Shown here one piece after another: positions 31,401-58,510 of a stretch of DNA of 64,000 bases (positions are counted from its first letter, which is position 1; every line of letters begins with the position of its first letter). The position numbers and the translations under genes are program-made. The stretch spans positions 11,408,001-11,472,000 of the forward strand of contig NC_135815.1 of assembly GCF_964213995.1 (NCBI RefSeq), read 5' to 3'. The DNA comes from Mustelus asterias. Lineage: Eukaryota. The notes below the pieces were generated by a model. The model saw only the letters and a list, made by a program, of their open reading frames with translations, was not told where the DNA came from and searched no databases.

Positions 31401-31532
31401 ATGGTGAAAAGGCATCAAGAGCCCTCCAGCATCCTTCTTGGATTTCAATTAGTCATGCATAATTATTTTATTTTAGCCTTTTAAAATGTCAGCATGGTTA
31501 ATTCAGTGTTTTTTAATAACCTTTTCCTTCAG

Positions 31533-31686
31533 ATTCATTGGAAGCTGTGCATATTCTGCTTGTTGTGTGAAGCGTATCTTAGGTGGTCACAGCTGCAGGA
31601 TTCACAACAAACTGTTGATCCTACAGATATAATTCGTTATGCCAAAGAGTGGGACTTCTACCAAATGTTTGGATTAGCTAGTTTGG
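31533..31686 (+). CDS. ARV1: ARV1 exon 3
   Basis: cttcag|[51 protein letters not shown]+G|gtaag, 154 nt. Confidence 0.97.
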
Positions 31687-32175: not shown

Positions 32176-32638
32176 GAATTCCATAGATTCCTTACAGTGC
32201 AGTGCTTTTGGCCCATCAAGTCCACGCTGACTCTCTGAAAGCAACTTGCCCATGCCCAACCCCTGTCCTATCCCCGTAACCATGATGTGGAGATGCCGGT
32301 ATTGGACTGGGGTAAACACAGTTAGAGTTTGAACAACACCAGGATAAAGTCCAACAGGTTTATTTGGTAGCAAATATTTGCTACCAAATAAACCTGTTGG
32401 ACTTTAACCTGGTGTTGTTAGAACTCTTACTGTGGCTATCCCCGTAATGCCATACATTTACTATGACTGATCACCTAATCTGCATATCTTCGGATTGTGG
32501 GAGGAAACCAGAGCACCCGGAGGAAACCCACACAGACACATTGAGAACATGCACACTCCACACAGACAGTCATCCAAGGCTGGAATTGAACTCGGGTCCC
32601 TGGCACTATGAGGCAGCAGAGCTAACCACTGTGCCACC
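32176..32638 (-). mobile_element. HE1-like V-SINE interrupted by a Penelope hairpin fragment (32283-32434)
   Basis: Antisense SINE body on both sides; CTATCCCCGTAA duplicated at 32268 and 32436. Confidence 0.85.
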
Positions 32639-32829
32639 TAAGCGATTAGGCTATGTAAATCAAGCTATGTAAATAATTTAAAACAGAAATGTTCTCAAAA
32701 ATTCAGATTACCAGATAATTAGAATGAGGATTAGACAACTTTCAAAAACTTAATCGAGTCATCAGTTATGCCTTGTATGAGTTATGACTCAACTGTTCAA
32801 TTATTATCTAACCATACCAGATAATCATC

Positions 32830-34160
32830 TGCGTTGGCCTCTCTTCCTGCTCCTTTCCCTCACTGTTACCTCTGGAGCCCTACCCAAGCTCTAATTTACA
32901 CGCTGTCCCTTGCTGACATCCAAAAACATCATACATTGATGACCTTCAGCTCTACCTCACCACCACATCGCTTGACTCCTCCACCATCTGATTTATCTCT
33001 CAGTTTTTCTGACATCCAATACCAGATGAGTATAAGTTTCTTCCCACAAAATATTAGAATCATAGAAACCCTACAGTGCAGAAGGAGGCCATTCGGCCCA
33101 TCGAGTCTGCACCGACCACAATCCCACCCAGGCCCTACCCCCACATATTTACCCGCTAATCCCTCTAACTACACATCTCAGGGACAATTTTTAACCTGGC
33201 CAATCAACCTAACCCGCACATCTTTGGACTGTGGGAGGAAACCGGAGCACCCGGAGGAAACCCACGCAGACACGAGGAGAATGTGCAAACTCCACACAGA
33301 CAGTGACCCGAGCCGGGAATCGAACCCGGGACCCTGGAGCTGTGAAGCAGCAGTGCTAACCACTGTGCTACCGTGCCGCCCAAATTGGGAAGATTTCACT
33401 CATTGTCTTCAGTCACTGCCACAAACTTCATTCCTTAGTCACTGATTTTATCCCTCATCCAGACCATTCGAAATCTCGGTATTTTATTTGATGCCAAGCT
33501 TCCAACCACAAATCCAGTCCATAATTAGCGCTACCTACGTCTACTTCCATAATGTTGGCTATCTCTGCCCCTGCTTCAGCTCATCAATTGAAAGCTTCAT
33601 CCATGTCTTGGTTGCCTCTAGACTTAAATTCCAATGCTCTCATGGTCAGCATCTTACCTTCCGTTCTCCATAAACCTGAAATCATCTAAAAAAAAACTTC
33701 CTGTATCTTAATGCACCAAGTTGCTTTCACCCATTACCCCTGTGCTCACTGGCCTATATTGGTCCCAGTCCAAATTGATTTTCAAATTCTCTTCTCTGTT
33801 TTCAAATCCTTTCATCAGTGTCCCTCCTTATTTCTGTAATCTCCACCAATCCCACAACCTTCAGAGATCCCTGCTTAACTCTGATTCTGGCCACTTGTAC
33901 ACCTCAAATTTTAATCACTCCAACATTGCCAGCTGTGCCTTCAGCCGCGTTGGCCCTCAGCTCTGGAATTCCCTCCCTTAACCTCTCAGCCTCTCTACCT
34001 CTCTCTCCTTTAAGACACTCCTGAAAAATTACCTCTTCAACCAAACGTTTGGTCCCCTGACCTAACACCTCCTTATGTGGCTCTGTGTTGAACTTTAATT
34101 TGCTAATGCACCTGTGAAGCAGTCTGGTATGTTTGATGTTAAAAGCAGTATATAAATTAA
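32830..34160 (+). mobile_element. Degraded L2 LINE 3' part
   Basis: IHVLVASRL, SPITPVLTGLYW and AFSRVGPQLWNSLP remnants typical of L2; split by a SINE at 33057-33381. Confidence 0.75.
33057..33381 (-). mobile_element. Young full-length HE1-like V-SINE, tail A
   Basis: Nearly identical (antisense) to the copy at 55987-56325. Confidence 0.93.
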
Positions 34161-34236
34161 AGTTTTTTAAAAATAGAGTACAACTTGCAACAATCCTGCA
34201 AAAAAAGGCAAATATGCTATTTTTTTTTATTTCTAG

Positions 34237-34461
34237 AGCTGGCAGGATTCCTGAGTGGGGCGTTTTTTTTCTTGTGGTTAACAAAAGATGATTTCATCCA
34301 GAAAAAATCAAATCGCAACACCTTGCTAATAGCTTTATTATTGTCTGGTTACGGGAAGCTCCTTGTCATTCCAGCTGTGATCTGGGAACATGACTACTCA
34401 CCATTATACATTAATCTCATCAAATTCTTTGTTCTTGCATCAAATGCACAAGCCGTCAGAG
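34237..34461 (+). CDS. ARV1: ARV1 exon 4
   Basis: ttctag|(E)LAGFLSGAFFFLW...ALLLSGYGKLLVIPAVIWEHDY...ASNAQAVR+G|gtaac, 225 nt. Confidence 0.96.
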
Positions 34462-35179
34462 GTAACCTGCTCATTATATCAGATTAACTAATTAACATTT
34501 TGAAGAAATGTTAAAGTTGTAATCTTCTTTGTTAACTGTGTTTCATTCTGTGAGCTTGCAATGTAAAAGTAAGTTTCCATAACTAGCTTAAATTGGTGAT
34601 AAATCTATCTACAGACATTTTTATTTTACATTTGCAATGAAAGGAGGCAATTGATATGAAAGCACTATTGGTTTGTGTGTAATAAGATCCATATGACTTA
34701 TCCACCTCTCTGATCAACTTTTTAGAAAGATTCTGAATGTGGTAAATTTAATTTATGTACAAAAGTCATGTTTACTGTTAATTCAAAATTGTGACAAGTA
34801 GTTTGTATTTAAGTGGTTTTCAGGAACAGCTATCTGATAGCTTCCATCATTAAAAGCTAAGTGGAAATGCTGCAGGTTTATTTTTTTTTAAATTATGAAT
34901 ATTCATGATTGAAAAGTTTATTTATTAGTATCACAAGTAGACTTGCATTCACACTGCAATGAAGTTATTGTGAAAATGCCCTAGAAGTCAATCCTTTTGT
35001 GCAAAAATCAGATTTTTATCAGTCATTCTGTCTAGGTCAGGTTAGATTGTGGTACCCTTTTCTGAGTTTCAGTTTTCATGGTTAGAAAATGTATTCTGCC
35101 CCTGTCTGCCCTCAAAGGACAAAGAACTTGGTTGAGTTTTTCTTTAAAATATTTTGTACTTATTGTCTTCAAGTATTAA

Positions 35180-35480
35180 TTACAACAGCTACAACATTGG
35201 CATCTACCCAACATTGTGGAAAATTGCCCAGGTATGTCCTGTGCACAAGAAACAGGACAAATCCAACCTGACCAATTACTGCCTCATCAGTCTACTCTCG
35301 ACCATCAGGAAAGTGGTGAAAGGGGGTCATCAACAGCACTATCAAGCAGCATTTGCTCACGCACGCTCAGTTTGGGTTCCGCCAGGGTCATTCAAAAGAG
35401 CTGAATGCCAGACGTGAGGTGCAAATGACTGTCCTCAACATTAAGGCAGCATTTGACCAAATATGGCATCAAGGAGCCTT
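35180..35480 (+). mobile_element. CR1-group LINE RT fragment (second family)
   Basis: GIYPTLWKIAQVCPVHKKQDKSN..NY..ISLLS; QFGFRQGHS; IKAAFDQIWH. Confidence 0.8.
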
Positions 35481-36141
35481 AACTCCTTATTGGTCACAAA
35501 GTGGCACAACTGCAACCTCCACAGCCCTTCTCCTCAAAAAACATATACTATGCAGACATTCTTAGGATATTAAATGTGGCTGAACTCTGATCTGTTATTC
35601 TGACTACGTTGTGTTAATGTTTAAATAGCACAATTGCTGCTCTGTTAGAAATTCTTTTCTGGTTTATCTCTGTGAAACTCAACACTTTTTTTTCCCAATT
35701 TAGTTTATTTCTGTCTATTAAGCTGAATTTTGTGTAGTTACTTCATTTTTTTCCTGTATGTCAGCCTTGGCTCAGTGATACCTGCTGACTTTGGGACGTT
35801 AGGTTGTGAAAGGTGCAATATTAGGCTGTAAAAGTGCGATATATATGCCAAGTTCTATGTTTCTCTTGTGAATAGCTAATTTTTATCTTCATCCCCTTCC
35901 CACAATGACAGTGCACCACCTTTTAATTTTATTTTCCTTTCTGCACTGTTACTGTGTTGAGCCTCCAATCTCTAGACACACACTGCCAATTAGAAATTTC
36001 ATGGGACCTTCACAAATAATTCAAAATCCTGTTTTTTCAGTTCAAGGACCAATGTAAAAATATACATTCCATTTTTTACATAGTTATATTCCTGTTCTGT
36101 GTTTATTTTAATGTACTCTAATGGTTTGTTTTCTCTTACAG

Positions 36142-36269
36142 TGGTGCTGAATAGCAGCAGGAGGTTTGCATTGTCTGTCATTTTCGTTGGATGGATAGTG
36201 GAGCAGTTTACAGCCTGCATCTTTCAACAGCTCAAATTGAGTACATCAGCATATGTTACAAATACCTAA
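36142..36269 (+). CDS. ARV1: ARV1 last coding exon
   Basis: ttacag|(V)VLNSSRRFALSVIFVGWIVEQFTACIFQQLKLSTSAYVTNT*; the total CDS is 723 nt = 240 aa plus stop. Confidence 0.92.
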
Positions 36270-39585: not shown

Positions 39586-40363
39586 TGATAGCTGAAACAG
39601 ATTGGTCATTTATTTCATTGTTGTTTGCGGGAGCTACTTTTGTACAATTTGGCTGCACCCTTTCAGCATTACAACAATGATTGCATATCTAGGAGTACTT
39701 AATTGATTGTAAATTACTTAATAATGCATTAAATGAATTCCCACGAATGAATAAAGAAATGATGAATTGTGCTATATAAATGTAAGTTTTTGTTTTTTTA
39801 ATAAACTTTCAGCTTCACCACTCCCACTCGTGCCCATTGATGAATGGCAAGAGGTCCACGAGTTAGAGATTCTATCTGCATTTAACTAACTTGAATTTTC
39901 AGTCTACAGCCCTTCCAGAAAAGTTCGAAAATCACGAACTTATCACATGATTGCATTGGTAGCTGTACACATGCTATACATTTATAAAACTATTTTTTTA
40001 TTTAATGAGGCAATTTACAATTTTACCGAATAGCCAACTTTGAACTCTGCTATTTTGAGATAAGTATGGTCGTATTTTGAGATATGACATACCCTTTATT
40101 CCACTTTTAAGGCTAATTCGTTCAATTACAATAAGTTAAATTCGGATCAGTTTCTCAGTTGTGATTATGTACCAACTAAGTGAAAGAAAAGCAATCAGAC
40201 CACGGAGGTGATTTTTTTTGTATTGTCTCTCTCCTGGCATTTTGAATCGTCTTACAGAAACTGCTAATGACGATGTGTGTGTCAGAGAATAGACGCAATA
40301 AAGCGTCTTTGTGTGACTGACTAACGTCTGATAACAGCGGCGAGGTTGGGTGGGACCAGCAAC

Positions 40364-40442
40364 ATGGTGACCAGGGGCAGGAGAGACATTCCCAGACTGA
40401 AAACGGAATCTCACATCATTGTATTGAAAAGAGGAAGTACAG
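40364..40442 (+). CDS. SYNJ2BP/OMP25-like PDZ protein exon 1
   Basis: AACATGG Kozak context; MVTRGRRDIPRLKTESHIIVLKRGST+G|gtcag, phase 1; parallels human EEINLTRGPS+G. Confidence 0.8.
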
Positions 40443-40799
40443 GTCAGCAGAGAAATTCTGGCATCCTCCATGCTCAGTTCGGAACAGGATATAAATTGTT
40501 ATCTTGGATCAGCAGTACTGGGGTTGTTAAAGTGCATCCAACATTTTTTTTAAATGGCATTTTTACAATACTTTAATTCTCACCAGTATTCTGTCCTTAC
40601 AAAGACTGGTAAAGGAAAATTAGTCTTAAGATTGAAATTTATATGGTAATAGCATATTTCCCAAAACCTTTTGTACTTGTAGCTTTTGCTGTAATGTAGG
40701 AAGTAGCACAAGTTGCAACAAAATAATGACCACTTGATGATTGATGCTGGTTCAGCGTTATATATTTACCAGGACACCAAGGAAAATAATCTCATGAAT

Positions 40800-42215
40800 A
40801 AAATAAGCAAAATACTGGAGATACTAGAATCTGGAGGAAGGACAGAGGATGCTGGAAAAACTCAGCAGGTCTGGTAGCATCTACCAGTAGAGAAAGTAGA
40901 TTTCAAGTCTTTTGACTCTTCCTCAGAACTGAAGGGAGGGAGAATGTGGTAGAGCTGTGAGAGATTGCAACAAAGAGTAGCAACTTTAAGAACAAAATCC
41001 AAATGGTCTGGTGTGGAAGGAGATAGGGGCATTGCATTGAGGCATCTACACACATGTGATATTTTAAAAAGCGTTTAAAATGGAGGAGAAAGGCCACAAT
41101 CTAAATAAAAGCAAATGACTGCAGCTGCTGGAATCTGAAACCAAAAGAGAAAATGCTGGAAAATCTCAGAAGGTTGGCAACATCTGTAAAGGAAAGAAAA
41201 GAACTGATGTTTCAAGTCCAAATGACCCAATCTCCTTCCAGATGCTGCCAGATCTGCTGAGATTTTCCAGCATTTGATTTGATTTATTATTGTCACATGT
41301 ATTAACATACAGTGAAAAGTATTGTTTCTTGCTCGCTATACAGACAAAACATGCTGTTCATAGAGAAGGAAATGAGAGAGTGCAGAATGTAGTGTTACAG
41401 TCAGAGCTAGGGTGTAGAGAAAGATCAACTTAATGCAAGGTTTTCAAATTCAGAAGTCTGACAGCAGCAGGGAAGAAGCTGTTCTTGAGTTGGTTGGTAC
41501 GTGACCTCAGACTTTTGTACCTTTTTCCCGAAGGAAGAAGTGGAAGAGAGAATGTCCAGGGTGTGTGGGGTCCTTAATTATGCTGGCTGCTTTGCCGAGG
41601 CAGCGGGAAGTGTAGACAGAGTCAATGGATGGGAGGCTGGTTTGCATGATGGATTGGATTTTCTCTTTCCGACACAATCAAACGTTGCTCAACTCAACAT
41701 TGAGTCCAGCGAGTTGAAAATGCTTAATAACCAGAAGATGAGATGCTGCTCCTCCAGCTTGCACCAAACTTCACTGGAGCATTGCAGCAGGCCAAGGATG
41801 GACATGTGAAAATGGCAAGCAACAAGAAGGTTAAGGTCATGCTTCCGGACTGAATAAAGGTGTTCCGCAAAGTGGTCTCCCTACTGTAGAGGAGACTGCA
41901 TTGGGAACAGCAGACACAACAGGCCAAACCAAAGGAAGTGCAAGTGAAATACTGCTTAACCTAAAAGGAATATTTGGGGCCTTGAATGGTGAGGCAATAT
42001 GAGATATAGAGGCGCAGGTGTTGCACTTTATGCGATTGCAAGGGAAAGTGCCATGGGAAGGGGATGGAGAATTGGACATGGTTGAGGAGAAAACAAGGGT
42101 ATTGTGAGCTCTTCCTGCGGAATGCTGACGGAGTTGAGGGGAAGATGTGTTTCATTGTAGCATCGTGCTGGAGTTGGTGGAAATGGAGGAGGATGATCCT
42201 TTTGAATGTAAATGA
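40800..42215 (-). mobile_element. Penelope family-2 remnants with nested insertions
   Basis: Degenerate GIY-YIG CSQCSLLY..ET (ORF 41724-41927); terminal repeats at 40800-40931 and 41104-41272. Confidence 0.7.
41273..41660 (-). mobile_element. Rex1/Babar-type LINE 3' end
   Basis: Same sequence family as 24071 and 52592. Confidence 0.85.
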
Positions 42216-43995
42216 TGGAAGGGGTCATCAACAGCGCCAACAAATGGCATTTGCTTAACAATAATCTGTCCACTGAAGTTCAGTTTGGGTTCCACCAGGA
42301 CCACTCTGCTCTTGCCTCATTACAGCTTTGGTTCAAACATGGACAAAAGAACTGAATGCCAGAGATGAGGTGAGACTGACTACTCTTGACAACAAGGCAG
42401 CGTTTGACCAAACATGACATCAAGGAGCCCTAGCAAAACTGGGGTAAAGGAGAATCAGGGTGGAAACGCTCAACTGGTTAGAGTCATACCTGGCACAAAG
42501 GAAGATGGTTGAGATGATTGGAGATTAATTCTCTCAATTCCAGGACATCACTGCAGGAGCTCCTCATCTTCAGCTGTTTCATTAACAATGTTCCTTCTAT
42601 CATATGGTCAGAAGTGGGGATGTTCGCTGATGATTGCACAATGTTCAACACCATCCATGCCTCCACAGATACAGAGGCAATCAATGCCCAAATGCAGCAA
42701 GACTTGGACAATATCCAGGCTTGGGCTGACAAATGGTAATTAACATTTGTGCTGCAAAAGTGCCAGGCAATGACCATCTCTGACAAGAGAGGATCTAACT
42801 ATTGCCTCTTGACATTTAATCAAATTGGAGATGGTCATTGCCTGGCACTTTTGCAGCACAAATGTGAATCCCCCACTATCAACATCCTGGGGGTTACCAC
42901 TGAACTTGACTGGCCATATAAATACTGTGCTACAAAAGCAGTTCCAAGGTTAGGAATCCTGCAGTGAGTAACTCACTTGTTGACTCCCCAAAGCCTGTCC
43001 ACCATTTACAAGACCACAAGTCAGCTGTGTGATGGAATACTCTCCACTTGCCTGGATGAATGCAGATCCAACAACGCTCAAGAAGCTTGATACCAGCCAG
43101 GAGAAAGCAGCTTCCTTGATTGGTAACCTTTGCACAAATTTCCAATCCCTCCACCAACGATGAACAGTAGCAGCAGTGTGTACCATCCACAAGACACACT
43201 CCAGGAACTCACCAAGGCTCCTCAGGCAGCACCTTTCAAACTGACAACCTCGACCATCTAGAACAGGTTTCCCAAACATTTCCAGCCACGGAACCCTTTT
43301 AACCTCCCAAGAGTACAAAGAAGCTCTGAGAAACATCCTTATTATTTGAAGAATCAAACCACAAAAAAAATGCAATAGGTACAAACATACAAAAACAAAC
43401 TTAAAATGTGTTTGTGTCTTGTATGTGTACAGTTATAATAAAAAGTCCTATTATTCAACAAATACTTCCAAGTCTTACCTTTTTGTCATTTTTAATGGAA
43501 ACTCACCCCACTCATCCTCACCCTCACCCACCCACACTGTCACCCACTCATCTTCCACTTGGGCCCCTACTCTTCACAGCTTTGGCTCTTCTTGGTGCCC
43601 CTGACTATGGTTTTTCTCAGGGGCCCTCCAACCCCAACCTTGGATCCTTTTGGACTGCCTTCCCCCAACTCGGCTCTTCTCGCTGTCCCCCGGCCTCAGT
43701 TCTTCTCAGACTGACTGCAGAACATCTCAGGCATCCCATGGAACCCAATTTGTGAATCTCTGATCTCGAAGGACAAGAGTAAGTCACTCACCATCTTTAC
43801 TTGGAAATATATCGCCATTCCTTCACTGTCGCTGGGTCAAAATCCTGGAACTCCCTGACAGCACTGTGGGAGTACCTACACCTCATGGACTGTAGCAGTT
43901 CAAGGAGGCAGCTCACCACCACCAGCTCAAGGGCAACTAGGGATGGGCAATAAATGTTGACCCAGTGTGTGACGCCCACATCCCATAAATGAATT
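42215..43995 (+). mobile_element. CR1-group LINE (second family), split by a hAT MITE
   Basis: FSCFINNVPSII.SEVGMFADDCTMF...MQQDLDNIQAWADKW; 3' end GGGCAACTAGGGATGGGCAATAAATG...GACGCCCACATCCCAT. Confidence 0.85.
43264..43762. mobile_element. Non-autonomous hAT (Charlie-like) DNA transposon
   Basis: Imperfect TIRs CAGGTTTCCCAAAC / TTTGTGAATCTCTG; 8-bp TSD ATCTAGAA / ATCTCGAA, matching the NTCTAGAN target preference. Confidence 0.75.
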
Positions 43996-45174
43996 TTTAA
44001 AATTGAGAATTGCTCTGCATTTCTGTTTTTCTGCCCAAACTGGATAACTTCACATTTTTCCACATTAAATTCCAACTGCTATGTTCTTACCCATTGAGTT
44101 CGCCCCTCTAAATCACCTTGAAGACTCTTAACATCTCTGTCACAACTCACATATGGCCCATGGATTTGTTTACTTCTATTTGTGCCATCAATTCATCTTC
44201 CTTACTGCAAATGTGGTGTGCATTCATTTAGAATGCCTTTCATTCTCGTTAGTATTTTCACAATCTCGAGCTTTATTTGTTGGTGCACTCAAGTTTGTCT
44301 GCTCTCTCTCTTCCTGCCACTCTCTGATTATCATTTTCCTTAATGCTACCCTACTCTCTTGCTATCTTAGAGGTTATTTTTTTTACCACAAAGAACCAGT
44401 TTACTGAATTAAGTCTGCCCTATGGACTTTTAAATCATAAACTTAGTTGTGAATCTAACAGAACCATAGTTTTAAAGTAATTAATTTGTTGTTACACACT
44501 TGGGAACATCCTGAGATAGTGGTAACGTGCTAAATAAGTGTAATCTCTTCCTAATAGTGGAACAGAAGACGCATGACAAAATGAGATGATGTAGCTTGTT
44601 ACATGGGAAAAGCTGATTCCAGAATTTATGCGTGATAAAGTAATTGCAGTGAATTAGTTGTTGAATGGAAGCCAGCATTTCAATTTAGACAAATTTTAAA
44701 CAACATCATGGACTGAATGCTTGCTGAATGTAAAAGAGCCAGCTGGAAACTTTCTTCAGTGTTAAATGGGTGAAGAGGAACAGAAGAGTAGCACTATGAC
44801 TTCATATTGCAGGAAGTAGTGTTTAAAATTGGAGTACAGAGATGAGTGAAATGTTCTACAGCTGACCAGATGTCCTATTCGGTCCAACTGCCCACATGTA
44901 TCACTGTCAGCAATATACACATCAGTCATTGTCTGATCGATTAGTGGAACAGGCTGAATAGCCTGCTTTTGTTCCACTGTTCCATTTCACCTGTGTTTCC
45001 ACCAATTGCCCTAGGTCAGAGAGCCACATTCAGACTTCCCCAGCAAGTTTTTGTATCATCTTTGGAAAGTGGGTGTTGCTGAAAAAGCTGGCCATCACTT
45101 GTTGACCTGACTGGCTCTTCAGAAGGTAGTTATTTTTGACCATTTTGGCATCTGACTTGAATCACTGGGCAGCA

Positions 45175-45460
45175 AGTGGTTAGCACTGCTGCCTCACAAC
45201 GCCAGGAACCTGGGTTTGATTCCCGGCTTGGGTCACTGTCTGTGCAGAGTCTGTACATTCTTCCCATGTCTGCATGGGTTTCCTTCAGGTGCTCCAGTTT
45301 CCTCCCACAGTCCAAAAGACATGCTGGTTAGGTGCATTGGCCATGCTAAATTCTCCCTTGGTGTACGTGAACAAGCGCCGGAGTGGAAACTAGGGGATTT
45401 TCACAGTAACTTCATTGCAGTGTTAACTTGTGACTAATAAATAAACTTTAAACTTAAACT
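45175..45460 (+). mobile_element. HE1-like V-SINE, tail B
   Basis: V-domain; ends GACTAATAAATAAACTTTAAACTTAAAC. Confidence 0.88.
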
Positions 45461-45845
45461 TGATTAAGGACAGCAGTTTCCTTCTTAAAAGAACATTAGT
45501 AAACAAGCTAGGGTTTTGTCACAGGCTGACAGTTTCATGGTCACTTTTACTGACCAGATTTCAACTGAATTCAAATACTCAAACTGCCATAGTGGGATTT
45601 GCACTAAAATTCCTTGGGTTATTTCTCTGGATTTTTAGCCTGGTAATAAACACCTCAATAACCGATAAGTGCCCCATCTTTTTTTCGCAGTTTCAACTCA
45701 CTTGCCTTAATGATTTTATATGTATAAATAGATGATAATAGCTATCTCCAGTGCGAACAAGATTATTATTGAAGAGTTCTATTGTACCTAACATTACAAT
45801 TCAGTGTCATTTTGATTTACATTCATGCTTGGTACTTATTTACAG

Positions 45846-45982
45846 GGTTTGGGTTTAACATCTTAGGAGGAGTGGATAAACCCTGTTATCCTGGAAATTT
45901 TGGAATCTATGTTGCTAAAATAAGAGAAAATGAATCGGCAGCTCTTGATGGAAGACTTAGAGAGGGTGACAAGATCTTGGAG
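45846..45982 (+). CDS. SYNJ2BP/OMP25-like PDZ protein exon 2
   Basis: ttacag|(G)[45 protein letters not shown]|gtatg, 137 nt. PDZ carboxylate-binding loop and the DGRL.EGDKIL motif of SYNJ2BP. Confidence 0.92.
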
Positions 45983-48088
45983 GTATGTTCCTGCAATTGT
46001 TTTGATCTAAACATGATTTTTTTCTGGAATTATGGATTATGGCAATGAAAAAAAAAAATCAAAACAGAAAATTTGATAGGTCTCCCAGCATCTGAGAAGA
46101 CTGGTTAATATTTGTTATGTATTTTTTTGTCAGAACTCAAAAGGTGTGAGCTTCAGAAAATTGAACAAGAGAAGCACTTAAATGGTCAGCTAACAAGTTT
46201 TAGTTTGTCCATATGATGTGGGTGTCACTGGCACAGCTGGTCCCATTCCAAATTACCCTTGAGAAGGTCTTCGTGAACAGCTGCAGTCCATGGGGTGTAG
46301 GTACACACACAGTGTTGTTAAGGAGGAAGTTCCAGGATTTTGGCCCAGTAGCAGTCAATAGTGGTTTGTTTCCAAGTCAGGATGGCTTGTGATTTGAAGG
46401 GGAACTTGCAGGTGGTGGTATTCCCATGTCCCTGCTCCCCTGGTTATGATAGGCAGTAGGGGTTGTGGGTTTGGAAGTATCATGCTCAGCGCAAGTATGG
46501 GAATTTTGGATATTCAAGACAACTGTAAGTTTGTACTTTGTGAAATGGCCACAAACTCTGATAAGGTTGCTGCAACTTAACATGTAACTGTGGGCATTTA
46601 AACTATGAAAAGTATTTGATTCTGTGGCCAACATTTAGTTAAACAGGACTGGAATAAGGGTATTTTGCAGCCACCTATGAATTTAAACATCTCATTGTTT
46701 AAAGATGGACCAATATTTGAGGAATATGGGATCACTAGACTGGCCACCAGGTGCCATATTGAACAAAGGAAACTATCTGAACTCAAGTTGGGACAGAGTG
46801 AAAGACCATTGTCAACTACTATTGTATCATGGTGGTCTGAACCCCAGATGTGTCTGTCATCTGACTGAAACTAACTTTCTGGGATTGCAGTATAATATAA
46901 CCTGAGCGAAGCAAATCTGGGAGGAAGAATGATCTGAAACAGCTGAATGTCTTCTAATGCAGCCCAAAGTACTCTATTTGTTCCAGTTTCCAAGTCGACT
47001 TGAGAACCAATCTCCTAGCTATTTGTAGACAAGAAGCTGTGCAGTTTTTTTTTTGTTTCTAAATGACCTTCACTCCAACTAAAGTATCAACTCAACTAAG
47101 AAGATATCAGGCCTACATTGACATTGAGACTGAGTTAGACATCCCATTTTTATAATTACAGATTTAACTTAATCTGTATCTAACCTTTGCATGTGTGGTA
47201 GTGTGAGTGAGATACGTGATTGAGATGTTGCATTTCAAAATTGGAGCAAGTGTATGATAATAAATAACTTAAAACCACCAAAAGCCTGCTGCTCGAATTC
47301 ATTTTTAATTGGAAAAAATCATCTGAAAACCAGGAAATACACAAACCTTACATACAAACATCCTGATTATGGACTGGAAAGGACCTGACAAATTATGTCT
47401 GCTGTCGAAGGAGCCTTGGCGAGTTGGTGGTGTGCATCTTGTAGATGGTATACACTGCAGCCATGGTGCACTGGTGATGGAGGGAGTGGATGGTTAACAG
47501 TACTTAACTACGCCACTGTTGGTCAAAATTAACTCCGTCAGTGGTTCAATTATGAAGCTTTCGTAAAAAAAACTATCTTCACCTCTAAGCTTATCCACAA
47601 GGATGCCACCAGGCTTCCTCCAATCGTTATTTGAAGCTATCCCAATGAGGTGATCATTTCCTACTTTCATGATTGGCAAGGTGCTTGGAAAGCATTTGAT
47701 TGCCATTTTCAGCTCAACCATCAAGGTATGACACAGTCAAGATTGAAGAAAATAAAAGATGAGTTAAATAGTGTACTGTTTTGAAGCTAAGCTCAGAGTT
47801 TAAATGCTGAAAATTATAGGAGTAACTGGAAGGTAAGGATTCTCACAGTTTTGAAAATTGAGTTATGAAAGTGCAATGAAGTTTAATTAGTAGTACATGT
47901 TCAGTAGAGGAAAAGCATATAGACAGAAAAGAACCTTTTCTTGAGCTACTTTTGAATCCACATTCTAAATGTGAAAGAACAGTGCTAACCCATTGCACAA
48001 TCTAGTCCCCATCCAAAATTTGCATTAAAATTATCACTTGCAACTGCACTGCTACTTCATTGTACCTCGTTTGATCTCCTGTCTTTAG

Positions 48089-48187
48089 GCTGGTGGAGTT
48101 TCACTTGTTAATGTACAGCATGAGGAAGCAGCAGAAATTTTTCGGAACGTGACCAACAATGAGTTAGTATTACTAATTGAGAGGCAG
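48089..48187 (+). CDS. SYNJ2BP/OMP25-like PDZ protein exon 3
   Basis: ctttag|AGGVSLVNVQHEEAAEIFRNVTNNELVLLIERQ|gtaag, 99 nt. PDZ alphaB helix with His (compare HQDAVDLFRNA). Confidence 0.88.
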
Positions 48188-48734
48188 GTAAGGAACAATT
48201 CAAAAGAAATCAATTCTTTGCGATAGATTTTTGTGGATAGAGTCAGCTAGAGCAACTTATGTTTGGTAACACTGATACAGACCATAGCACACCCCAATAT
48301 AGGAAGTGCTCTTCACAAGAAGGTAAATAAGATCCCACCAGGGGAAAGCAATTCCTTGTCAGGACAGGGTAGGTTAGCCCTGAACATTCTGCTCTTCTAA
48401 GCCAATACATCATTTGAATGAATATACGGTCACTCAGTTACCATGTAAGCAAAATGTGTGGCACCTTCACCAACATGTAAACTAATTTCAAACTCTGCGT
48501 AAATTTAAAAAATATATATTGGAACTCTATTTTTGCTTCGGCAATTTTAGTAATAGGGTAATATGCAGCACGTCTTTGAAGAAACACTTTCATAAAGAAA
48601 CTGTTTAAGAGTCAGGTTTTGGAATTGTTGGTTTCAGCCTTATTTGAGCCACTGATTTCAATCTATTCTTAATTGTTTTGTACGTAAGCAAAGCATGTAC
48701 ATTGTTGACACAGCGACTGGACAGCATATAATGG

Positions 48735-49035
48735 TCCTAGAATTTTTTTACAGTGCGGAAGGAGGCCATTTGGCCCATTGGGTCTGCACCAACTCTCCAA
48801 AAGAACATCTTACTCAGCCCCCCCCCCCCCCCCCCCCGCCCCATAACACCATGCGTTTACCGTGGCTAATCCATCCAACCTACATGCCTTTTGCAGTGTA
48901 GGAGGAAACTGGAGCACACGGAGGAAACCCACGCAGACACAGAGAGAACGTGCAAACTACACACAGACAATTACCCAAGGCCGGAAACGAACCCAGGTTC
49001 CTGGTGCTGCGGGGCAGCAGTGCTAACCACTGTGT
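48735..49035 (-). mobile_element. HE1-like V-SINE with an internal poly-C run
   Basis: Antisense head and V-domain; C-run at 48818-48837. Confidence 0.8.
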
Positions 49036-49209
49036 CAATGTCCTGTTCGAGAAGCAAAAATAATGGACATTACAAAGAGAAAGGAAACCTTTTCTTGATG
49101 AACGATTCCCTTTTCTTTCCTATAATTTTTTTTGGGACTCGAAGCTCACACCGCGTATCATTCTCAGCAGAGGATGATGATGTATCCTTTGCACAGAAAT
49201 TAGAAACAA

Positions 49210-50260
49210 GGGGCTGGATTTGACAGTGCCTGCCAGGCGTGTTTTCAGCAGGGGTGGGTGCATGTAAAATACGAGGGGTGCCCAGCCCACAAACATTCCA
49301 CTTCGGCAGCCTGCCTCCATATTTAAATAAATGTCAATTGAGCTCGTTAAGAAGCCAGTTAACCCGGACAATACCCTGGTTGACATGGACAGGCAGGAGT
49401 GGGCAAGGCAGGGAGGGGTACATTCTCTGGGGGTGTCTCTGTGTGCATCAGTTGCACCTGGCCTCCAAAACCAGCTCCTTCACCCGCCCCCATCCCCAGC
49501 TGTCCCTGTCCTTTTGCTACCTGATTCTCTCCCTGCCCAAAAAGACCCAACCTATCTGGCTCCAAAGTCCATCTTGTCTTCCTCATGGGTGTGCTTGCAG
49601 TCCCAGCAGCTATTCCACTGGCCGGACTGGCCAATCTGTCTTCCAATTGAATTATCATCCAGTTTAGCCCACCTGCAGCATGTCATGGCTGCAGTCCGGT
49701 CCTCCATAGATAACATCCAGCCCAGGGTGCCTTTTGACAGCAACCTGAGAAGACTCTTGTGTTTCTCTGTGGAAAGCATGACCTCTGCTCCTCAATCTTC
49801 TTCAACAGCATAGCTGAGATTGATAATTATGTGCAGATTTCTAAACTTAGTCCTTATCACAAAGGCTGCAACCAGCAAGGTGAGATTTTGAAATGTACAT
49901 ACCTGAATATGGAATTCGTAACAGCAAAAATCCTGTTCCTGACTCCACAGTCAAAGGACTGCGACCACCTCCAGCCATCAATTTCCCTGCCATCCTCACC
50001 AGATCACTGCTGCCTCTGCTTCCTAACCATCCTTCCCCCAACCTGCCTCTCATTCATGCCCTTTCCTCATTAGTTGGGGGTCACTATGGTGCCAGCAGTA
50101 GCCTGATCTCCCATTGTGCTCGTCTGATGCTTTCAGCAGCGACATGGATGAGACTTAATAGGCCCATAATCAGGGATGCCTCAGCCCTCACCGTGCAGAC
50201 ATGCTCAAATTTCTCAGCCACACTGTTACACAAAGCCAACATTTCTAAAACTATTCAAGT
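49210..50260 (-). mobile_element. Possible decayed PIF/Harbinger element
   Basis: GC-richer block starting GGGGCTGGATTT; weak Myb/SANT-like remnant DLVR..GK..AGGG..PLT on the minus strand. Confidence 0.35.
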
Positions 50261-51014
50261 GATGTTTTTCAGGTTGGATGTCAGCTTGACAATGAGGTGT
50301 GTTCAACAGCCGAATGGAAGCCACCACAACTCTGGCAGGTCATTTGAATATCTTCCCCTGTGTATTAAAACAATGTGGTATAGATTTCATTATACAGCTT
50401 TCCCTCGGGTTCAACAACAAAAACTTCTATTGATATACTAAAATATCTCAAGGTGCTTCACAGGGACATCTATAATTTGACATTGAGAGACGTGAGATAT
50501 TAGGGCAGATTGGTTTTAAGGAGTGTCTTAAAGGAGAAAGACAGGAGAGGCTTAAGCAGGAAATTCCAGAGGTTCTCCTTTATCTGCAATATACTGAAAA
50601 CAAAACATACATAAATTACACTACACTCTTTATTGCAATTGCAAACAAACTTAAAAAGCACGAGGAAAAAAAGAGATAGTTACATAATGATAGGTGCTCC
50701 TGACCTGAAGCAGAAATGACAGCCATAATTTTTTAAGTTCCCTGACCAAGCTACAATTAAACTGAGTGATTTAACCTGTATTTGCTTTAAAGAGACACAG
50801 ATCCACCCAGCAGAATAATACTTTGTGTTGTGCTTTGTATAAACCTCCCATCCTGAAAAGCAGAATATCCTTTGGCTTGTCTTGAACAATAACACAGGAA
50901 TATTTTGGTATTTAAAATTGGAATATGGACATCCCAACCAGAATGATAGCTGGATTGAGAGGATTAAATTATGAGCACAACTTGCATAAGCCCAGCTTCC
51001 ATTCCCTTAAGTTT

Positions 51015-51210
51015 AAGCTTATTTATTAGTATCACAAGTAGGCTTACATTAACACTGCAATGAAGTTACTGTGAAAATCCCCTAGTCGTCACACTCCAGT
51101 GCCTGTTCGGGTACACAGAGGGAGAATTTAGCATGGCTAGTGCACCTAACCAGCACATCTTTCGGACTGTGGGAGGAAACCAGAGCACCCGGAGGAAACC
51201 CAAGCAGATA
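51015..51210 (-). mobile_element. HE1-like V-SINE 3' half, tail B
   Basis: Antisense tail B plus part of the V-domain; shorter tail-only copies at about 19383-19525, 30607-30673 and 34915-34985. Confidence 0.85.
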
Positions 51211-52591
51211 AAGAGAAAATATTTAATCTGTTAAGTGAATCCAGGATGAGGAGATACAAAACTCAATTGATATCTGGATATCTCACTCCCAAAAGACTGC
51301 GAATGCTGGGACAAGTCTTCAAGGCTGATATTGATAGATAAAAGTATCAAGGGATGTGGGGTTGAGGTACAGATTCGCCACAATATAATTGAATGCTGGG
51401 GCTGGTTCAAGAATTGAATGGTTTACCTCCATCTCTGTTAGGGTTTTAGAGAAAGCTGTTTCTGGTTGTTCTAAAAATGTGCACTTGTCTAAAACTCTCA
51501 AATGAGATGAGAAATCACATGGAATAAAGTGATGAAAGAGTAAATCCAGGAGCAACAATATATTATCATCACAGAAATTACTGGAAAAGCTCAGCAGGTC
51601 TGGCAGCGCCTGTGGAGAGGAACACAATTAACATGTCAAGTCGAATTTAACTTCAGAACCATTCTTTACAAAATAGACTCATTTGTGCTTACATAAGATT
51701 CCACTGGTGCAGATTGTCTCACTAAATTGTCAAGGATGGGTGAGGGGAAACATTAGCACAAAACTAGTGATCGCTGTTGAGTTGAATGACAGACAAAATA
51801 GACTGAGTGTAAAGTACCACAGCTCAAGGTAAATTTCACCCCACTTCACATATAAATCTGGGCACTAACTCTCTAGAAGAACTGGACATCACTATCAACC
51901 ACCATTCACAAACAAAAGCAATATACTACAGATGCTGAAAATCTGAAATAAAAACGAAATGCTGGAAACACTCAGCAGATCTGACAGCATCTGTGGAGAG
52001 AGACAAACAATTAACACTTGAGGTCAAGGATCTTTCTTCAGAATTGAAGGGAGATAAAAAAAAACAGAGGTGCGGTTGGAGTGGGAGTAGGAGAAAGAAC
52101 AAAAGGGAAGGTCTGTGATAGGTTGGAGGGCAGGAGAAATTAACTGACAAAAAAATATTGGTACAAAAGGCAAAGTGAGGGGTAATGGTTATAGTAAAGA
52201 AACTAAATATGTGCCCAGAATGGGTGTGTATAGTGAACAGCTGTGTCCATAAGCAAAAAACATGAAAAATAAAATAAGATGGGGACAGGGGGTAACAGTG
52301 CAGGGGGGCTAGCAGTAGATGCAGAGTTTATGATCTGAAATTGTTGAACCCTCAGTGTTGTGTCCAAAAGTACCTAATCAAATTATGAGGTGCACTCCTT
52401 AAGCTTGTTTTGAGCTTCAATGGAACAATGGACAGAGATGTCTGCTTGGGCGAAAGGTGGAGAATTAAAATACAAGCCCCCGGAATCTCAGGATTGCACT
52501 TGCAGACAGAGGAGGTGTTCTGCAAAGTGGACACCCAATTTGCATTGGATTTCCCCAACGTAGAGGAGACTGTACTGTGAGCAACGAATAC

Positions 52592-53600
52592 TGATTTGAT
52601 TTTGATTTGATTTATTATTGTCACATGTATTAGCATACAGTGAAAAGTATTGTTTCTTGCGCGTTATACAAAGTATACCATTCATAGAGAAGGAAACGAG
52701 AGAGTGCAGAATGTAGTGTTACAGTGATAGCTAGGGTGCAGAGAAAGATCAACTTAATGCAAGGGAGGTCCATTCAAAAGTCTAACGACAGCAGGGAAGA
52801 AGCTGTTCTTGAGTCAGTTGGTACGTGACCTCAGACTTTTGTCTCTTTCTCCCAACGGAAGAAGGTGGAAGAGAGAATGTCCGGGGTGCGTGGGGTCTTT
52901 AATTATGCTGGCTGCTTTGCCGAGGCAGCAGGAAGTGTAGACAGAGTCAATCAATGGGAGGCTGGTTTGCGTGATGGATTGAGGCTACATTCACGATCTT
53001 TTGTACTTTTGTGCGGTCTTGGGCAGAGCAGGAGCCATACCAAGCTGTTACACAACCAGAAAGAATGCTTTCTATGGTGCATCTGTAAACGTTGGGGAGA
53101 GTCGAAGCTGATATGGCAAATTTCCTTAGTCTTCTGCGAAAGTAGAGGCATTGGTGGGCTTTCTTAACTATTGTGTCGGCAGCAGGGGACCAGGACAGGT
53201 TGTTGGTGATCTGGACACCTAAAAGCTTGAAACTCTCGACCCTTTTTACTTTGTCCCTGTTGATGTAGACAGGGGCTTGTTCTCCTTTACACTTCCTGAA
53301 GTCGATAACAATTCCTTTGTTTTGCTGACATTAAGGGAGATTATTGTCGCAGCACTAGTTCACCAGATTCTCTGTCTCATTCCTGTACTCTGTCTTGTCA
53401 TTGTTTGAGATCCGACCCACTACGGTGGTGTCATCAGCAAACTTGAAAATCAAATTGGAGGGGAATTTGGCCACACAGTCATAGGTGTATAAGGAGTAGA
53501 GGGCTGAGAACACAGCCTTGTGGGGCACCGGTGTTGAGGATGATCGTGGAGGAGATGTTGTTGTCTATCCTTACTGATTGTGACCTGTGTGTTAGGGAGT
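52592..53600 (-). mobile_element. Rex1/Babar-type LINE (RT C-terminal half to 3' end)
   Basis: LNTGAPQGCVLSPLL motif; (CAAAT)n tail. Confidence 0.9.
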
Positions 53601-55165
53601 TAGAACATAAGAAATAGGAGCAGGAGTAGGCCATCTGGCCCTTCGAGCCTGCCCCGCCATTCAACAAGATCATGGCTGATCTGAAGCGAATCAGTTCCAC
53701 TTACCCGCCTGCTCCCCATATCCCCTAATTCCCTTATCGATCAGAAAACTATCGACCCATGATTTAAACATATTCAACGAGGAAGCCTCCACCACTTCAA
53801 TGGGCAGAGAATTCCAGAGATTCACTACCCTCTGAGAGAAGAAGTTCCCCCTCAACTCTGTTCTGAACCGGCCCCCCCATATTTTGAGGCTGTGCCCTCT
53901 AGTTCTGGTTTCCCTTCTAAGTGGAATCTCTCCACCTCTACCCTATCCAGCCCCTTCATTATCTTATATGTCTCTATAAGATCACCCCTCATCCTTCTAA
54001 ACTCCAATGAGTACAGACCCAATCTGTTTAATCTCTCCTCATAAGCTACACCCCTCATCTCCGGTATCAACCTGGTGAACCTTCTCTGCACTCCCTCCAA
54101 GGCCAATATATCCTTTCGCAAATAAGGGGACCAAAACTGCACACAGTACTCCAGTTGCGGCCTCACCAGTGCCTTGTACAGTTGCAGCAAGACCTCCTGC
54201 TTTTATATTCTATCCCCCTCGCGATAAAGGCCAACATTCCATTCGCCTTCTTGATCACCTGCTGCACCTGCAGACTGAGTTTTTGAGATTCGTGCAGAAG
54301 GACCCCCAGGTCCCTCTGCACAGTCGCACGATGTAATTTTTCTCCATTTAAATAATATTCCAATTTACTATTATTTCTTCCAAAGTGGATAACCTCACAT
54401 TTGCTAACGTTATATTCCATCTGCCAGATCCTCGCCCACTCGCTCAGCCTATCCAAATCTCTCTGCAGACTTTCCGCGTCCTCCACGCAATTCGCTTTCC
54501 CACTCACCTTCGTGCCATCAGCAAACTTGAATACCCTACATTCAGTCCCCTCCTCCAGATCATCTATGTAAATGGTAAACAATTGAGGCCCCAGCACCGA
54601 TCCCTGCGGCACGCCACTGGTTACCAACTGCCAACCAGAAAAGCACCCATTTATCCCAACTCTCTGCTTCCTGTTAGATAGCCAATCCCCAATCCACGCC
54701 AACACCTTACCCCTAACTCCGTGTACCCCAATCTTCTGCAGCAACCTTTTGTGAGTCACCTTATCGAACGCCTTCTGGAAATCTAAAAACACCACATCCA
54801 CCGGTTCCCCTCTGTCAACCGCACTAGTGACATCTTCATAAAAGTCCAGTAGATTCGTCAAACACGACTTTCCCTTCATGAATCCATGCTGCGTCTGCTT
54901 GATCGAACCATTCTTATTCAGGTGCTCTGTTATTTCCTCTTTAATAATGGACTCTAGCATCTTCCCAACTACGGACGTTAAGCTAACCGGCCTGTAGTTA
55001 CCCGCCTTTTGTCTACTTCCTTTTTTAAACAGCGGCGTAACAGTAGCTGTTTTCCAGTCAGCCGGCACTACCCCAGAGTCCAGCGAATTTTGATAAATTA
55101 CTACTAACGCATCTGCTATTACCTCAGCCATTTCTTTCAGTACCCTGGGATGCATTCCATCCAGG
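53601..55165 (-). mobile_element. Young CR1 LINE, 5'-truncated, frameshifted
   Basis: 330-aa RT ORF 54163-55155 continuing in ORF 53852-54190; catalytic motif reads FADG; 3' UTR to 53601. Confidence 0.95.
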
Positions 55166-55986
55166 AGAAGTGCTTGTGGTCCTGCACAATGAGAGAGGAG
55201 GTCTCAGGGCAGGTATTACGCCTCCTTTGTTTGCATTAAGGAGGTGCCATCGGAGAGAAGTGAAGGATTGGGCATAATTGAGAAGTGGACCAAGGTGTTT
55301 TAGAGGGAACGATCCTTTCAGAATGTTAACAGGGAATAATGAATATTAAATTATCAACTATTATCAAATAATATTCATTATAAACCCACTGATTGTCAGG
55401 CTGCAGTTCCTCACACCCTGCTCTCTTTAAGGACTTCATTTTAAATTTCAAACAATGCTCGTCAGATAACTGTCAATCATCATCAACTGGTGCATTTTCC
55501 ATGGCAATGCCTCTCCAATCAGAGGTCACCTGCCAAAACCAAACAGCATTCGCTTCTCATACAGTATCATTTTTTGTTTTCCCTTACATTGATATTTTTG
55601 CAAAGTGTCCTGATGAAGCAAGATGAAAAGTTTCAACACGTCTCTTTATTTCAGCAATATTCAAGTTCTGTACTACCAAATAACTGTTTGCCTTCCTTGG
55701 TTCTATATTAAACTAGTAGCCAAAATCCTCTTCAGGTGCTTATGATAGGGTGTCAGCAGTCATAAACAATGACAAATGTTTCCTATTGATGCCTGAGCAA
55801 TTAATCATTTACAAAAGCTTCACAGATTCGTAGAAAAATGGGTCGTAGCTGAAACTGAACCAGAATAAATATCAACAATAAAGTCAGATTTTGTGCTGGG
55901 GATGGAAGGCTGAGGATAAGAGACAGAATGTATGGTGACAACTTTATTGTCCGACCAACCTGCCAGTCTTCAATTCCCTGATACAA

Positions 55987-56325
55987 GGGCGGCACGGTAG
56001 CACAGTGGTTAGCACTGCTGCTTCACAGCTCCAGGGTCCTGGGTTCGATTCCCGGCTTGGGTCACTGTCTGTGTGGAGTTTGCACATTCTCCTCGTGTCT
56101 GCGTGGGTTTCCTCCGGGTGCTCCGGTTTCCTCCCACAGTCCAAAGATGTGCGGGTTAGGTTGATTGGCCAGGTTAAAAATTGCCCCTTAGAATCCTGAG
56201 ATGTGTAGGTTAGAGGGATTAGCGGGTAAACATATGTGGGGGTAGGGCTTGGGTGGGATTGTGGTCGGTGCAGACTCGATGGGCCGAATGGCCTCCTTCT
56301 GCACTGTAGGGTTTCTGTGATTTCT
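55987..56325 (+). mobile_element. Young full-length HE1-like V-SINE, tail A
   Basis: GGGCGGCACGGTAGCACAGTGG head, B box GGTTCGATTCC, V-domain, tail A. Confidence 0.93.
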
Positions 56326-56577
56326 GTGAACTGAGTGTTCGGGTAACTGAACTGGTATGATATCCTGCAAATTTCTGCCTTTATGCAATTGTTGTACAGT
56401 TTACTGCTGCACCGATTGCTCAATTAAATCCTAAAGGCTATGAAACTATAACAAATAATTTTTGTGATAAGTCACTTCTAATTAAAAGCAAAATACTCCG
56501 GATGCTGGAAATTGGCAATAAAAAAAAATGCTGGATAAACTCAGCAGGTTTGGCAGCATCTGTAGAGAGAGAAACAA

Positions 56578-56618
56578 GAGTTAATGTTTCGAGTCCATAT
56601 AACCCTTCGACAGAACTC
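56578..56618 (-). ncRNA. Hammerhead-like motif in a Penelope family-2 terminal fragment (56485-56620)
   Basis: GAGUU-CUGUCGA-A-GGGUU auaug GACUC-GAAAC-AUU-AACUC: perfect stem I, stem II, one core deviation. Confidence 0.55.
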
Positions 56619-56719
56619 TTCTAATTTCTTGATTACTGTTTAGTTGTGGTTTATGTTTGTAATACCAATAAAGCACTGTTTTGTATGCTGACCCTAACTT
56701 TCTGTTTTATTTATGGCAG

Positions 56720-56863
56720 TACTCTGTAAAGAAACCTCAAAAACCGTGTCACAGTTCAAGGACATTTAACAACGGTAGATTGCCATGGATCGTTCTAGCA
56801 ACTTCTGTGGTGACTGTAGCCATCGTGATAGGGGCACTGAAACTCTCAGCTGTAAAGAAATGA
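56720..56863 (+). CDS. SYNJ2BP/OMP25-like exon 4 (C-terminal transmembrane tail anchor)
   Basis: ggcag|YSVKKPQKPCHSSRTFNNGRLPWIVLATSVVTVAIVIGALKLSAVKK*; phase 0, hydrophobic segment plus basic tail, AATAAA directly after the stop. Total 152 aa. Confidence 0.78.
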   Translation, partial: YSVKKPQKPCHSSRTFNNGRLPWIVLATSVVTVAIVIGALKLSAVKK

Positions 56864-57147
56864 AATAAATCCTCATTTATTTATGTAATAACCTTGCCAG
56901 TACCAGTTAAAGGCTTGCCAGTGCCTTTATTTTGTTGCAGCACAATTACAACCACATCAAACTATTAGTGCAAAGGACAGGTGGCACGAAGTGGAAATAT
57001 GGTTTATAAATGCAGGTTCTGGAAATCTGAAACACTAAAGACAATACCAGGAATCCACAGTAAGATTGGTTAGCATTTGAAAGAGAAAGAAAGGTACTCA
57101 TTTCAAAGAAAGCTGCTGTGTCAGAACTTGATGTAGTGCTGTTACAT

Positions 57148-57869: not shown

Positions 57870-58510
57870 CTTGCCGTGATGAGAGGCTCGAGGACCGTAT
57901 CCCGCTCCATTTTATCTCCCTGACTACCGATGCATCGACACTCTCGCCTTTCGATTGCCTCTCATTGAAACCTTCAGCGATGCCCTTCCGTGGGGTAGTC
58001 GCCCGGGGCGGGGTCTCCACCACTTCCTCCTCCTGGCATAGCGCCCCCGGGCGGTGGGGAGGTCTGGATTCCCATCACCACTATCGCTGCAGCGCCCCCG
58101 GGAGTTGGGGAGGTCTGGATTTCCGTCACCTCCACCACCTCCTCCTATCGCTGCAGCGCCCCCGGGCGGTGCGGAGGGATGAGAAGCTGCTTCGTCTTTT
58201 GTCCGCCGACGATGGGGACGGGGGGAGGGTGGATGCGGTGATAGAGTCGCTCGAGCGCCTTTGCTGGAGGAGCGGCCGTTGGGGCGGCGGCGTCTCGCCC
58301 GGTGAGACGGAGGGGGCCGGGGCCAGGGCAGGGCGGGGTCGGGCCGGGGGGAGGGGGAAGCCGGAGGGGATAGCCCTGGGAAGCCGCGGCTTGGGGTGAG
58401 GGAAGAGGAGGGGGAAGCCCAGCCTGCGCCGCCCGCTGGAGCAACCGGGAGAGAATGGCCAACGAGCTGGTGATCCTCAATGTGTACGACATGGTGAGTG
58501 AGCGGCAATT
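57870..58510 (+). promoter_or_regulatory. CpG island, promoter and 5' UTR of DESI2
   Basis: Sharp GC/CpG enrichment, GC boxes and a triplicated GCGCCCCCGGG motif, ending at the exon-1 donor. Confidence 0.85.
58455..58493 (+). CDS. DESI2: DESI2 (PPPDE1) first coding exon; no further exon found in the window
   Basis: MANELVILNVYDM|gtgagt resembles human MGANQLVVLNVYDM; phase 0; lies in a CpG island. Confidence 0.88.

Follow-up and report, generated by a model that had tools for sequence, protein, structure and literature searches.

The window analyzed here, a 64,000-nucleotide (nt) stretch of Mustelus asterias contig NC_135815.1 (positions 11,408,001 to 11,472,000, forward strand; referred to as C15), contains at 40364..56869 an intact gene for a small protein with a single PDZ domain and a C-terminal transmembrane (TM) anchor, related to SYNJ2BP. 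The canonical SYNJ2BP of the same genome lies on a different contig, C18. We lean towards the view that the window gene is a conserved second SYNJ2BP of cartilaginous fishes, which arose in the first vertebrate genome duplication, with likely loss in bony vertebrates, and that it encodes a predicted tail-anchored PDZ adaptor of the mitochondrial outer membrane with likely shifted ligands. That it is a real and functional paralogue is almost certain.

The coding sequence lies on the + strand in four exons of 79, 137, 99 and 144 nt (144 including the stop) with AG/GT ends and phases 1, 0, 0, giving an open frame of 152 amino acids (aa); the splice ends and the reading frame bear out the model put forward in the original prediction. 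Exon 1 (40364..40442) contains the ATG, the N-terminus, PDZ strand A and the carboxylate-loop lysine/arginine, ends in a phase-1 donor, and is matched in the proteins of other sharks. Exon 2 (45846..45982), which extends from the GFGF loop to PDZ strand D, has the length and phases of canonical SYNJ2BP exon 2, and alone matches Pfam PDZ above the curated cut-off (E 8.5e-7). Exon 3 (48089..48187) encodes helix alphaB with its His and an Ala at alphaB5, and carries a one-residue insertion relative to the canonical exon of 96 nt. The last coding exon (56720..56863) encodes a basic linker, a 20-aa TM segment and a +3 tail, and its stop is directly followed by an AATAAA hexamer (56864-56869), the end of which is the gene end originally given. 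Exon 2 is 82-100% identical to RefSeq proteins of other cartilaginous fishes, and exons 1, 3 and 4 were matched by tblastn. The open frame is therefore not a product of chance.

A cassette exon at 50273..50338 (+ strand, 66 nt, in frame) adds 22 aa of linker and gives a 174-aa form. Use of a GC donor after 50334, four bases before the end of this exon, is predicted to shift the frame and yield a 128-aa form lacking the anchor. RefSeq isoforms of Scyliorhinus canicula include 152-, 174- and 128-aa forms with ends as predicted for the window gene, and similar frame-shifted forms are present among the Heterodontus and Chiloscyllium models. From the way RefSeq builds isoforms, these models are presumably backed by RNA evidence. 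A word search of sequencing runs, a weak test because the query was mostly intronic, gave no RNA run among its matches, and the two runs containing 98% of the words look like DNA. The cassette exon, the GC donor and the ARV1 read-through models discussed below had all been overlooked.

Upstream, at approximately 40097..40208 (+ strand), a segment that ends near a GT donor is likely a 5' exon or a promoter-proximal stretch. In Heptranchias models, an alternative first exon shares 39% aa identity with it over 43 aa (E 6e-4); the M. asterias segment contains a stop. Coding exon 1 may itself be internal, since an AG located 26 nt upstream of the ATG is preceded, at 40315-40337, by CTGACTAAC, which resembles a branch point, and by a GATA-like TGATAA.

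A search of the genome with exon 2 returned the window first and C18 at 12.46 Mb next (56%), followed by DLG-type and other PDZ domains, and the top two matches of a Ciona protein were the same two loci. No third SYNJ2BP copy was present among the 20 (exon-2 query) and 66 (Ciona query) scored genome candidates. The C18 gene (12451330-12487509) has exons of 61, 137, 96 and 117 nt with the same phases, and encodes 136 aa. Its exon 2 matches shark and ray proteins named SYNJ2BP at 82-98%, and its product is 39% identical to the window protein over 130 aa. The intron phases and the 137-nt exon 2 are shared by shark canonical SYNJ2BP and the window gene; the retention of introns and phases in both copies indicates a DNA-based duplication and rules out a retrocopy.

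The C18 copy is surrounded by SLC8A (11.64 Mb), MED6 (12.62), PCNX (13.46) and SIPA1L (13.96), and the MED6, PCNX, SLC8A and COX16 synteny is that of the C18 copy, not of the window gene, which has ARV1 as its neighbor. The expectation of a second, intact SYNJ2BP-family gene besides a canonical one thus holds: the window gene is not the sole SYNJ2BP of this genome, and it falls outside the orthologue clade. The canonical gene had also been expected beside COX16. A COX16 exon is indeed present on C18, at 11552615, but it is 0.9 Mb distant and on the opposite strand, with SLC8A in between (one exon was found, and misassembly is possible). An inversion likely separated COX16 from canonical SYNJ2BP, and would prevent a SYNJ2BP-COX16 read-through in M. 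asterias.

To examine the occurrence of the paralogue, 343 fetched proteins were classified by profile score and motif. Twenty-five of them fall with the window gene, and every one comes from a chondrichthyan; 11 species are represented, Leucoraja and Callorhinchus among them, and both genes are present on different contigs in 6 named species. In an alignment search of 3385 candidates, the score dropped from 185 bits at the last paralogue to 112 at the following match (among the 120 of 123 matches listed). A profile search of 1.84 billion representatives returned 6 paralogue sequences as the only single-stretch matches among the top 150, down to 137 bits. Constraint was gauged from amino-acid conservation. 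The identity of paralogue PDZ domains to that of the window is 72% in the chimaera and 78-92% in five elasmobranch species, compared with 82-93% for the canonical gene. This closeness within elasmobranchs, despite a long stem branch, argues for a burst of change followed by similar constraint.

RefSeq has automatic names for these proteins, including SYNJ2BP-like, DLG-like ("disks large homolog 1-like"), "mitochondrial scaffolding protein 1-like" and ARV1. In Callorhinchus milii (P0012, P0276), the paralogue is named plain SYNJ2BP, and one C-terminus corresponds to window exon 4 in another frame; the missing anchor may be an annotation error or a real frameshift. No canonical SYNJ2BP of the chimaera was present among the sequences listed. 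No description of the paralogue was found in a literature search by title and abstract start (SYNJ2BP with paralogue, ohnologue, shark or cartilaginous scope; few subscription papers covered). The gene had been called possibly uncharacterised, which stands for the literature searched but not for the databases, where automatic RefSeq models already exist.

The window protein has the single PDZ domain with GFGF loop and alphaB His, the 20-residue hydrophobic C-terminal segment and the terminal KK that had been attributed to it. Vertebrate SYNJ2BP/OMP25/ARIP2 likewise consists of a single PDZ domain, a C-terminal TM anchor and a short basic tail (PMC7164261, PMC5404927). Invertebrate SYNJ2BP pro-orthologues (Ciona, molluscs) have the same architecture. 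Compared with canonical SYNJ2BP, the window gene has GFGF for GLGF, Ala for Val at alphaB5, Gly or Asp for Asn74, Glu for Gly56, a one-residue insertion, an extra cassette exon and a long basic linker. DLG/MAGUK PDZ2 domains are its next-best PDZ matches and the source of the DLG-like RefSeq names. DLG/MAGUK proteins contain three PDZ domains together with SH3 and GK domains, whereas the window protein has one PDZ domain and a tail anchor, and neither SH3 nor GK; a DLG fragment is ruled out by this architecture and by the trees.

In an AlphaFold model of the Scyliorhinus torazame orthologue (75-row alignment), the PDZ domain has a predicted local distance difference test score above 90, followed by a disordered linker containing the cassette and a C-terminal helix (150-173). 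The best Protein Data Bank (PDB) match of this model is the human SYNJ2BP PDZ domain (root-mean-square deviation 1.0 A over 94 columns); SYNJ2BP is also the best single-domain sequence match in the PDB. A protein-atlas search with the whole protein led to SYNJ2BP clusters, and one with the C-terminal part gave no usable match.

The carboxylate-loop basic residue (Arg23/Lys), Ile32, His83 and Phe90 are kept in the paralogue. Leu28 is replaced by Phe and Val87 by Ala in 9/9 paralogue rows, while Leu and Val are invariant in the other 66 rows of the family (23 from vertebrates, 43 from invertebrates), none of the 43 invertebrate rows carrying the substitutions of the paralogue. Positions 28 and 87 line the ligand pocket of PDZ domains, and the two substitutions suggest a shifted ligand specificity, a change that is about as likely as not.

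The tail of the window protein (20-aa TM segment, grand average of hydropathicity (GRAVY18) 2.44, charge +3) resembles the canonical mitochondrial anchor. Paralogue tails average GRAVY18 2.33 and charge +3.1 (11 rows), compared with 2.38 and +3.7 for shark canonical tails (11 rows), and the 20-aa TM segment is conserved in all 11 full-length paralogue rows. As judged by these tail properties, the mitochondrial outer membrane is a likely location for the paralogue. Two points count against this assignment: the Callorhinchus models lack an anchor in frame, and, according to PMC5450235, mammalian organelles are not cleanly told apart by hydrophobicity and charge, and OMP25 itself reaches peroxisomes too. 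The terminal KK was considered as an ER (endoplasmic reticulum)-retrieval signal and discarded, as neither its position nor its side of the membrane is the right one.

It is unlikely, though not negligible, that the protein acts mainly away from mitochondria. It would then be a tail-anchored scaffold of the ER or of peroxisomes, a soluble PDZ protein, or the 3' half of a read-through product that joins ARV1 to the PDZ gene. Anchor-less isoforms are present in several species, and TM hydropathy of about 2.3-2.4 is in the range seen for ER proteins too; on the other hand, the tail values are similar to those of canonical SYNJ2BP. Read-through models fusing ARV1 to the PDZ gene are present in RefSeq for Rhincodon and Stegostoma (5 records), and both fusion routes are in frame in the window, ARV1 exon 3 (31533-31686) being phase-compatible with exon 2 of the window gene (45846) and with an acceptor at 40338. 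However, agreement in phase is expected by chance in one case in three, stand-alone models exist in the 9 other species, and the fusion drops ARV1 exons 4-5. Human has a SYNJ2BP-COX16 read-through, and a teleost SYNJ2BP-COX16 model (P0066) was among the matches listed; this too is a fusion of tandem neighbors, while in the window the neighbor is ARV1, upstream, and the PDZ gene would form the 3' half.

Trees were constructed on 96 columns of the PDZ domain. In a 64-row tree with DLG outgroups, the window gene groups with the SYNJ2BP family and not with DLG, the paralogues form a clade (100/100), and a 94/99 branch lies between them and the canonical vertebrate genes. For 31-row trees, the 4 outgroups and 29 rows hand-picked as redundant or long-branched were left out, and two models (LG+G4 and a mixture) were used. 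With both models the order is invertebrates, then paralogue, then shark and bony canonical genes, and the window gene is outside the canonical SYNJ2BP clade. Support is 95/89 for canonical shark plus bony, 85/84 and 85/79 for all vertebrates, and 100/99-100 for the paralogue clade, the stem branch of which is long (1.46-1.99 changes per site). This order fits a duplication younger than the divergence of tunicates and, probably, older than the shark/bony split. In killifish canonical SYNJ2BP (P0024, P0026, P0033), the betaB-betaC loop is convergent on that of the paralogue; P0033 still groups with teleost orthologues (99/89).

The chromosomal context was examined by mapping 8 families, with paralogue identity taken from position only. 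Four of the 8 form C15-C18 pairs: ADSS (13.4 and 54.9 Mb), CEP170 (14.3 and 54.7), actinin-type (18.4 and 10.9) and RGS_DHEX (20.9 and 15.0). The actinin and RGS loci on C18 are at most 2.6 Mb from canonical SYNJ2BP. Of the paralogous pairs named in the original prediction, RGS6/7-type and ACTN-type loci are on C15 as proposed, but PCNX and SIPA1L are on C5. According to Lamb 2021 (PMC8040251), AKT3, PLD5, ZBTB18, PCNX2 and SLC8A1 belong to quad A of paralogon 3 and their 14q partners AKT1, PCNX1 and SLC8A3 to quad C, with the (A,B) versus (C,D) split in duplication round one (1R). The ADSS, CEP170, RGS and actinin rows are not among the parts of PMC8040251 behind this quad placement, and the part of its supplement examined contains no mention of SYNJ2BP. 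In PMC13689697, ancestral chromosomes are given for 6,495 families. Since quad A families are on both C5 and C15, quad A appears to be divided between the two in M. asterias. Genes that lie together in one block at human 1q42-44 likewise appear split, with presenilin, SIPA1L and PCNX on C5 (138-141 Mb) and ARV1, DESI, ADSS, CEP170, actinin and RGS on C15 (11-21 Mb).

Several points weigh against an origin in genome duplication followed by loss in bony vertebrates. In the 64-row tree, the paralogue is unresolved among invertebrates and the root is unreliable. In approximately unbiased (AU) tests, a grouping of the paralogue with shark canonical genes was not rejected (p 0.15 with LG+G4, 0.117 with the mixture), nor was a grouping with bony genes (p 0.073), and the alignment combines only 96 columns with a long paralogue branch. 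The 8 families were not chosen blind, having been picked from human 1q42-44/14q pairs. Four of them (PCNX, presenilin, SLC8A, SIPA1L) link C18 to C5 and lack a C15 match, and 3 of these 4 have copies at most 1.6 Mb from canonical SYNJ2BP. No bony-vertebrate member was found in word-limited searches and in a profile search whose best 150 matches (to 137 bits) were mostly taken up by multi-PDZ proteins. A diverged orthologue in bony vertebrates or cyclostomes could escape these searches, and lampreys, hagfishes and amphioxus were not represented by any named sequence in the sample. The AU results and the four C5-paired families leave the whole-genome-duplication origin proposed originally likely but not proven.

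An alternative is a gene or segmental duplication confined to chondrichthyans, which would have occurred before the chimaera/shark split and been followed by fast divergence, with long-branch attraction moving the copy out of the orthologue clade and no loss in bony vertebrates. The restriction of the paralogue to cartilaginous fishes, its long stem, the AU results and the pairing of the nearest tested C18 neighbors with C5 are consistent with it. We consider such an event unlikely, because the best trees under both models join shark and bony canonical genes, and the window contig is paralogous to C18 in half of the families mapped. Furthermore, the paralogue has Pro39 and Arg53, as do most invertebrates (39/43 and 32/43), whereas canonical vertebrate genes mostly have Gln and Lys.

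An older or otherwise small-scale duplicate, formed in the chordate or vertebrate stem and located on the paralogous chromosome by coincidence, is improbable. It would accord with the position of the paralogue in the tree with DLG outgroups, with the modest support for vertebrate monophyly (85/79-84), and with a C15-C18 paralogy that is at chromosome scale, the two SYNJ2BP loci having no immediate neighbors in common; but no second SYNJ2BP-type clade joins the paralogue among 27 invertebrate rows, and the location agrees with the quad A/quad C pattern. A pseudogene or assembly artefact can be set aside as extremely improbable, given the open frame over five intact exons, the PDZ identities to chimaera and elasmobranchs, and the conserved TM segment.

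Upstream of the paralogue, ARV1 (26643..36269, + strand) has 5 coding exons and an open 239-aa frame, with Pfam Arv1 matched by 3/3 exons tested. The downstream neighbor is a gene of the DESI family. Its first coding exon lies at approximately 58456..58494 (+ strand), about 22 kb from ARV1, and its later exons, beyond the window, match Pfam Peptidase_C97. The neighbors had been named TTC13, ARV1 and DESI2; ARV1 and the DESI family are confirmed by these matches, while the name DESI2 is tentative, as is TTC13, read from exon peptides of a minus-strand neighbor of which 2 exons tested gave no Pfam match. ARV1 and the presumed TTC13 share a CpG-rich head-to-head promoter at 26050-26740 (observed/expected (o/e) 0.96, GC 60%). 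ARV1 intron 1 contains a 620-aa open reverse-transcriptase-type frame at 26681-28543, which we take to be a CR1-like long interspersed nuclear element, and a near-identical stretch occurs again in L037.

The start of the window gene is GC-poor (36-40%) and not a classical CpG island, as had been noted. CpG is, however, locally undepleted there (o/e 0.6-0.9, depending on window placement, compared with a low-GC median of 0.27); of 384 low-GC windows, only 4 have at least 14 CpG, and the gene start is one of these. The tissue-restricted expression that had been read from the missing island is unsupported, since the CpG state says little either way.

In mammals, SYNJ2BP is held in the outer membrane by its tail anchor, binds RRBP1 and brings about contacts between mitochondria and the ER (PMC5404927), and splice variants lacking the anchor are also known (PMC7164261). 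Together with this biology, the kept pocket residues and the matching tail suggest that the paralogue is a class I adaptor of the outer membrane whose partners would be altered. We propose that the first vertebrate whole-genome duplication gave rise to two SYNJ2BP-family genes, the second of which would have been lost in bony vertebrates. The basic-flanked 20-residue C-terminal helix would enter the mitochondrial outer membrane and leave the PDZ domain in the cytosol. There the GFGF loop would take the C-terminal carboxylate, the alphaB His would pick Ser or Thr at position -2 (class I), and the Leu-to-Phe and Val-to-Ala changes may alter the choice of C-termini. In the manner of SYNJ2BP, the paralogue could bring ER proteins, receptors and enzymes to mitochondria as partners, and splicing may decide how long the linker is (forms of 152 and 174 aa) or free a soluble 128-aa PDZ protein. 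In a bolder form, which we regard as doubtful, 1R gave jawed vertebrates two tail-anchored PDZ adaptors, the second of which was rebuilt early with a new pocket and linker, strongly constrained in cartilaginous fishes since before the chimaera split, given its own ligands and a separate organelle-contact or recruitment pathway with an anchored/soluble switch at the conserved GC donor, and lost wholesale in bony vertebrates.

The finding is a modest one and opens no new mechanism: a conserved paralogue that is real, undescribed in the literature searched, and a further ohnologue-like gene retained in cartilaginous fishes. It exposes annotation errors, the gene being filed as DLG-like, fused into ARV1, or called plain SYNJ2BP in Callorhinchus. 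Hox14, FoxG2/3 and Pax10 are ohnologues kept in cartilaginous fishes and lost in mammals. The window gene would have the same pattern of differential loss, but those are developmental regulators, whereas it encodes a housekeeping-type organelle adaptor, apparently lost in all bony vertebrates sampled; it would thus extend differential ohnologue loss beyond developmental genes. A PDZ domain on a transmembrane protein of mitochondria is described as very unusual (PMC5404927). A second natural version with two altered pocket residues offers a comparison for the evolution of PDZ specificity and of mitochondria-ER tethering.

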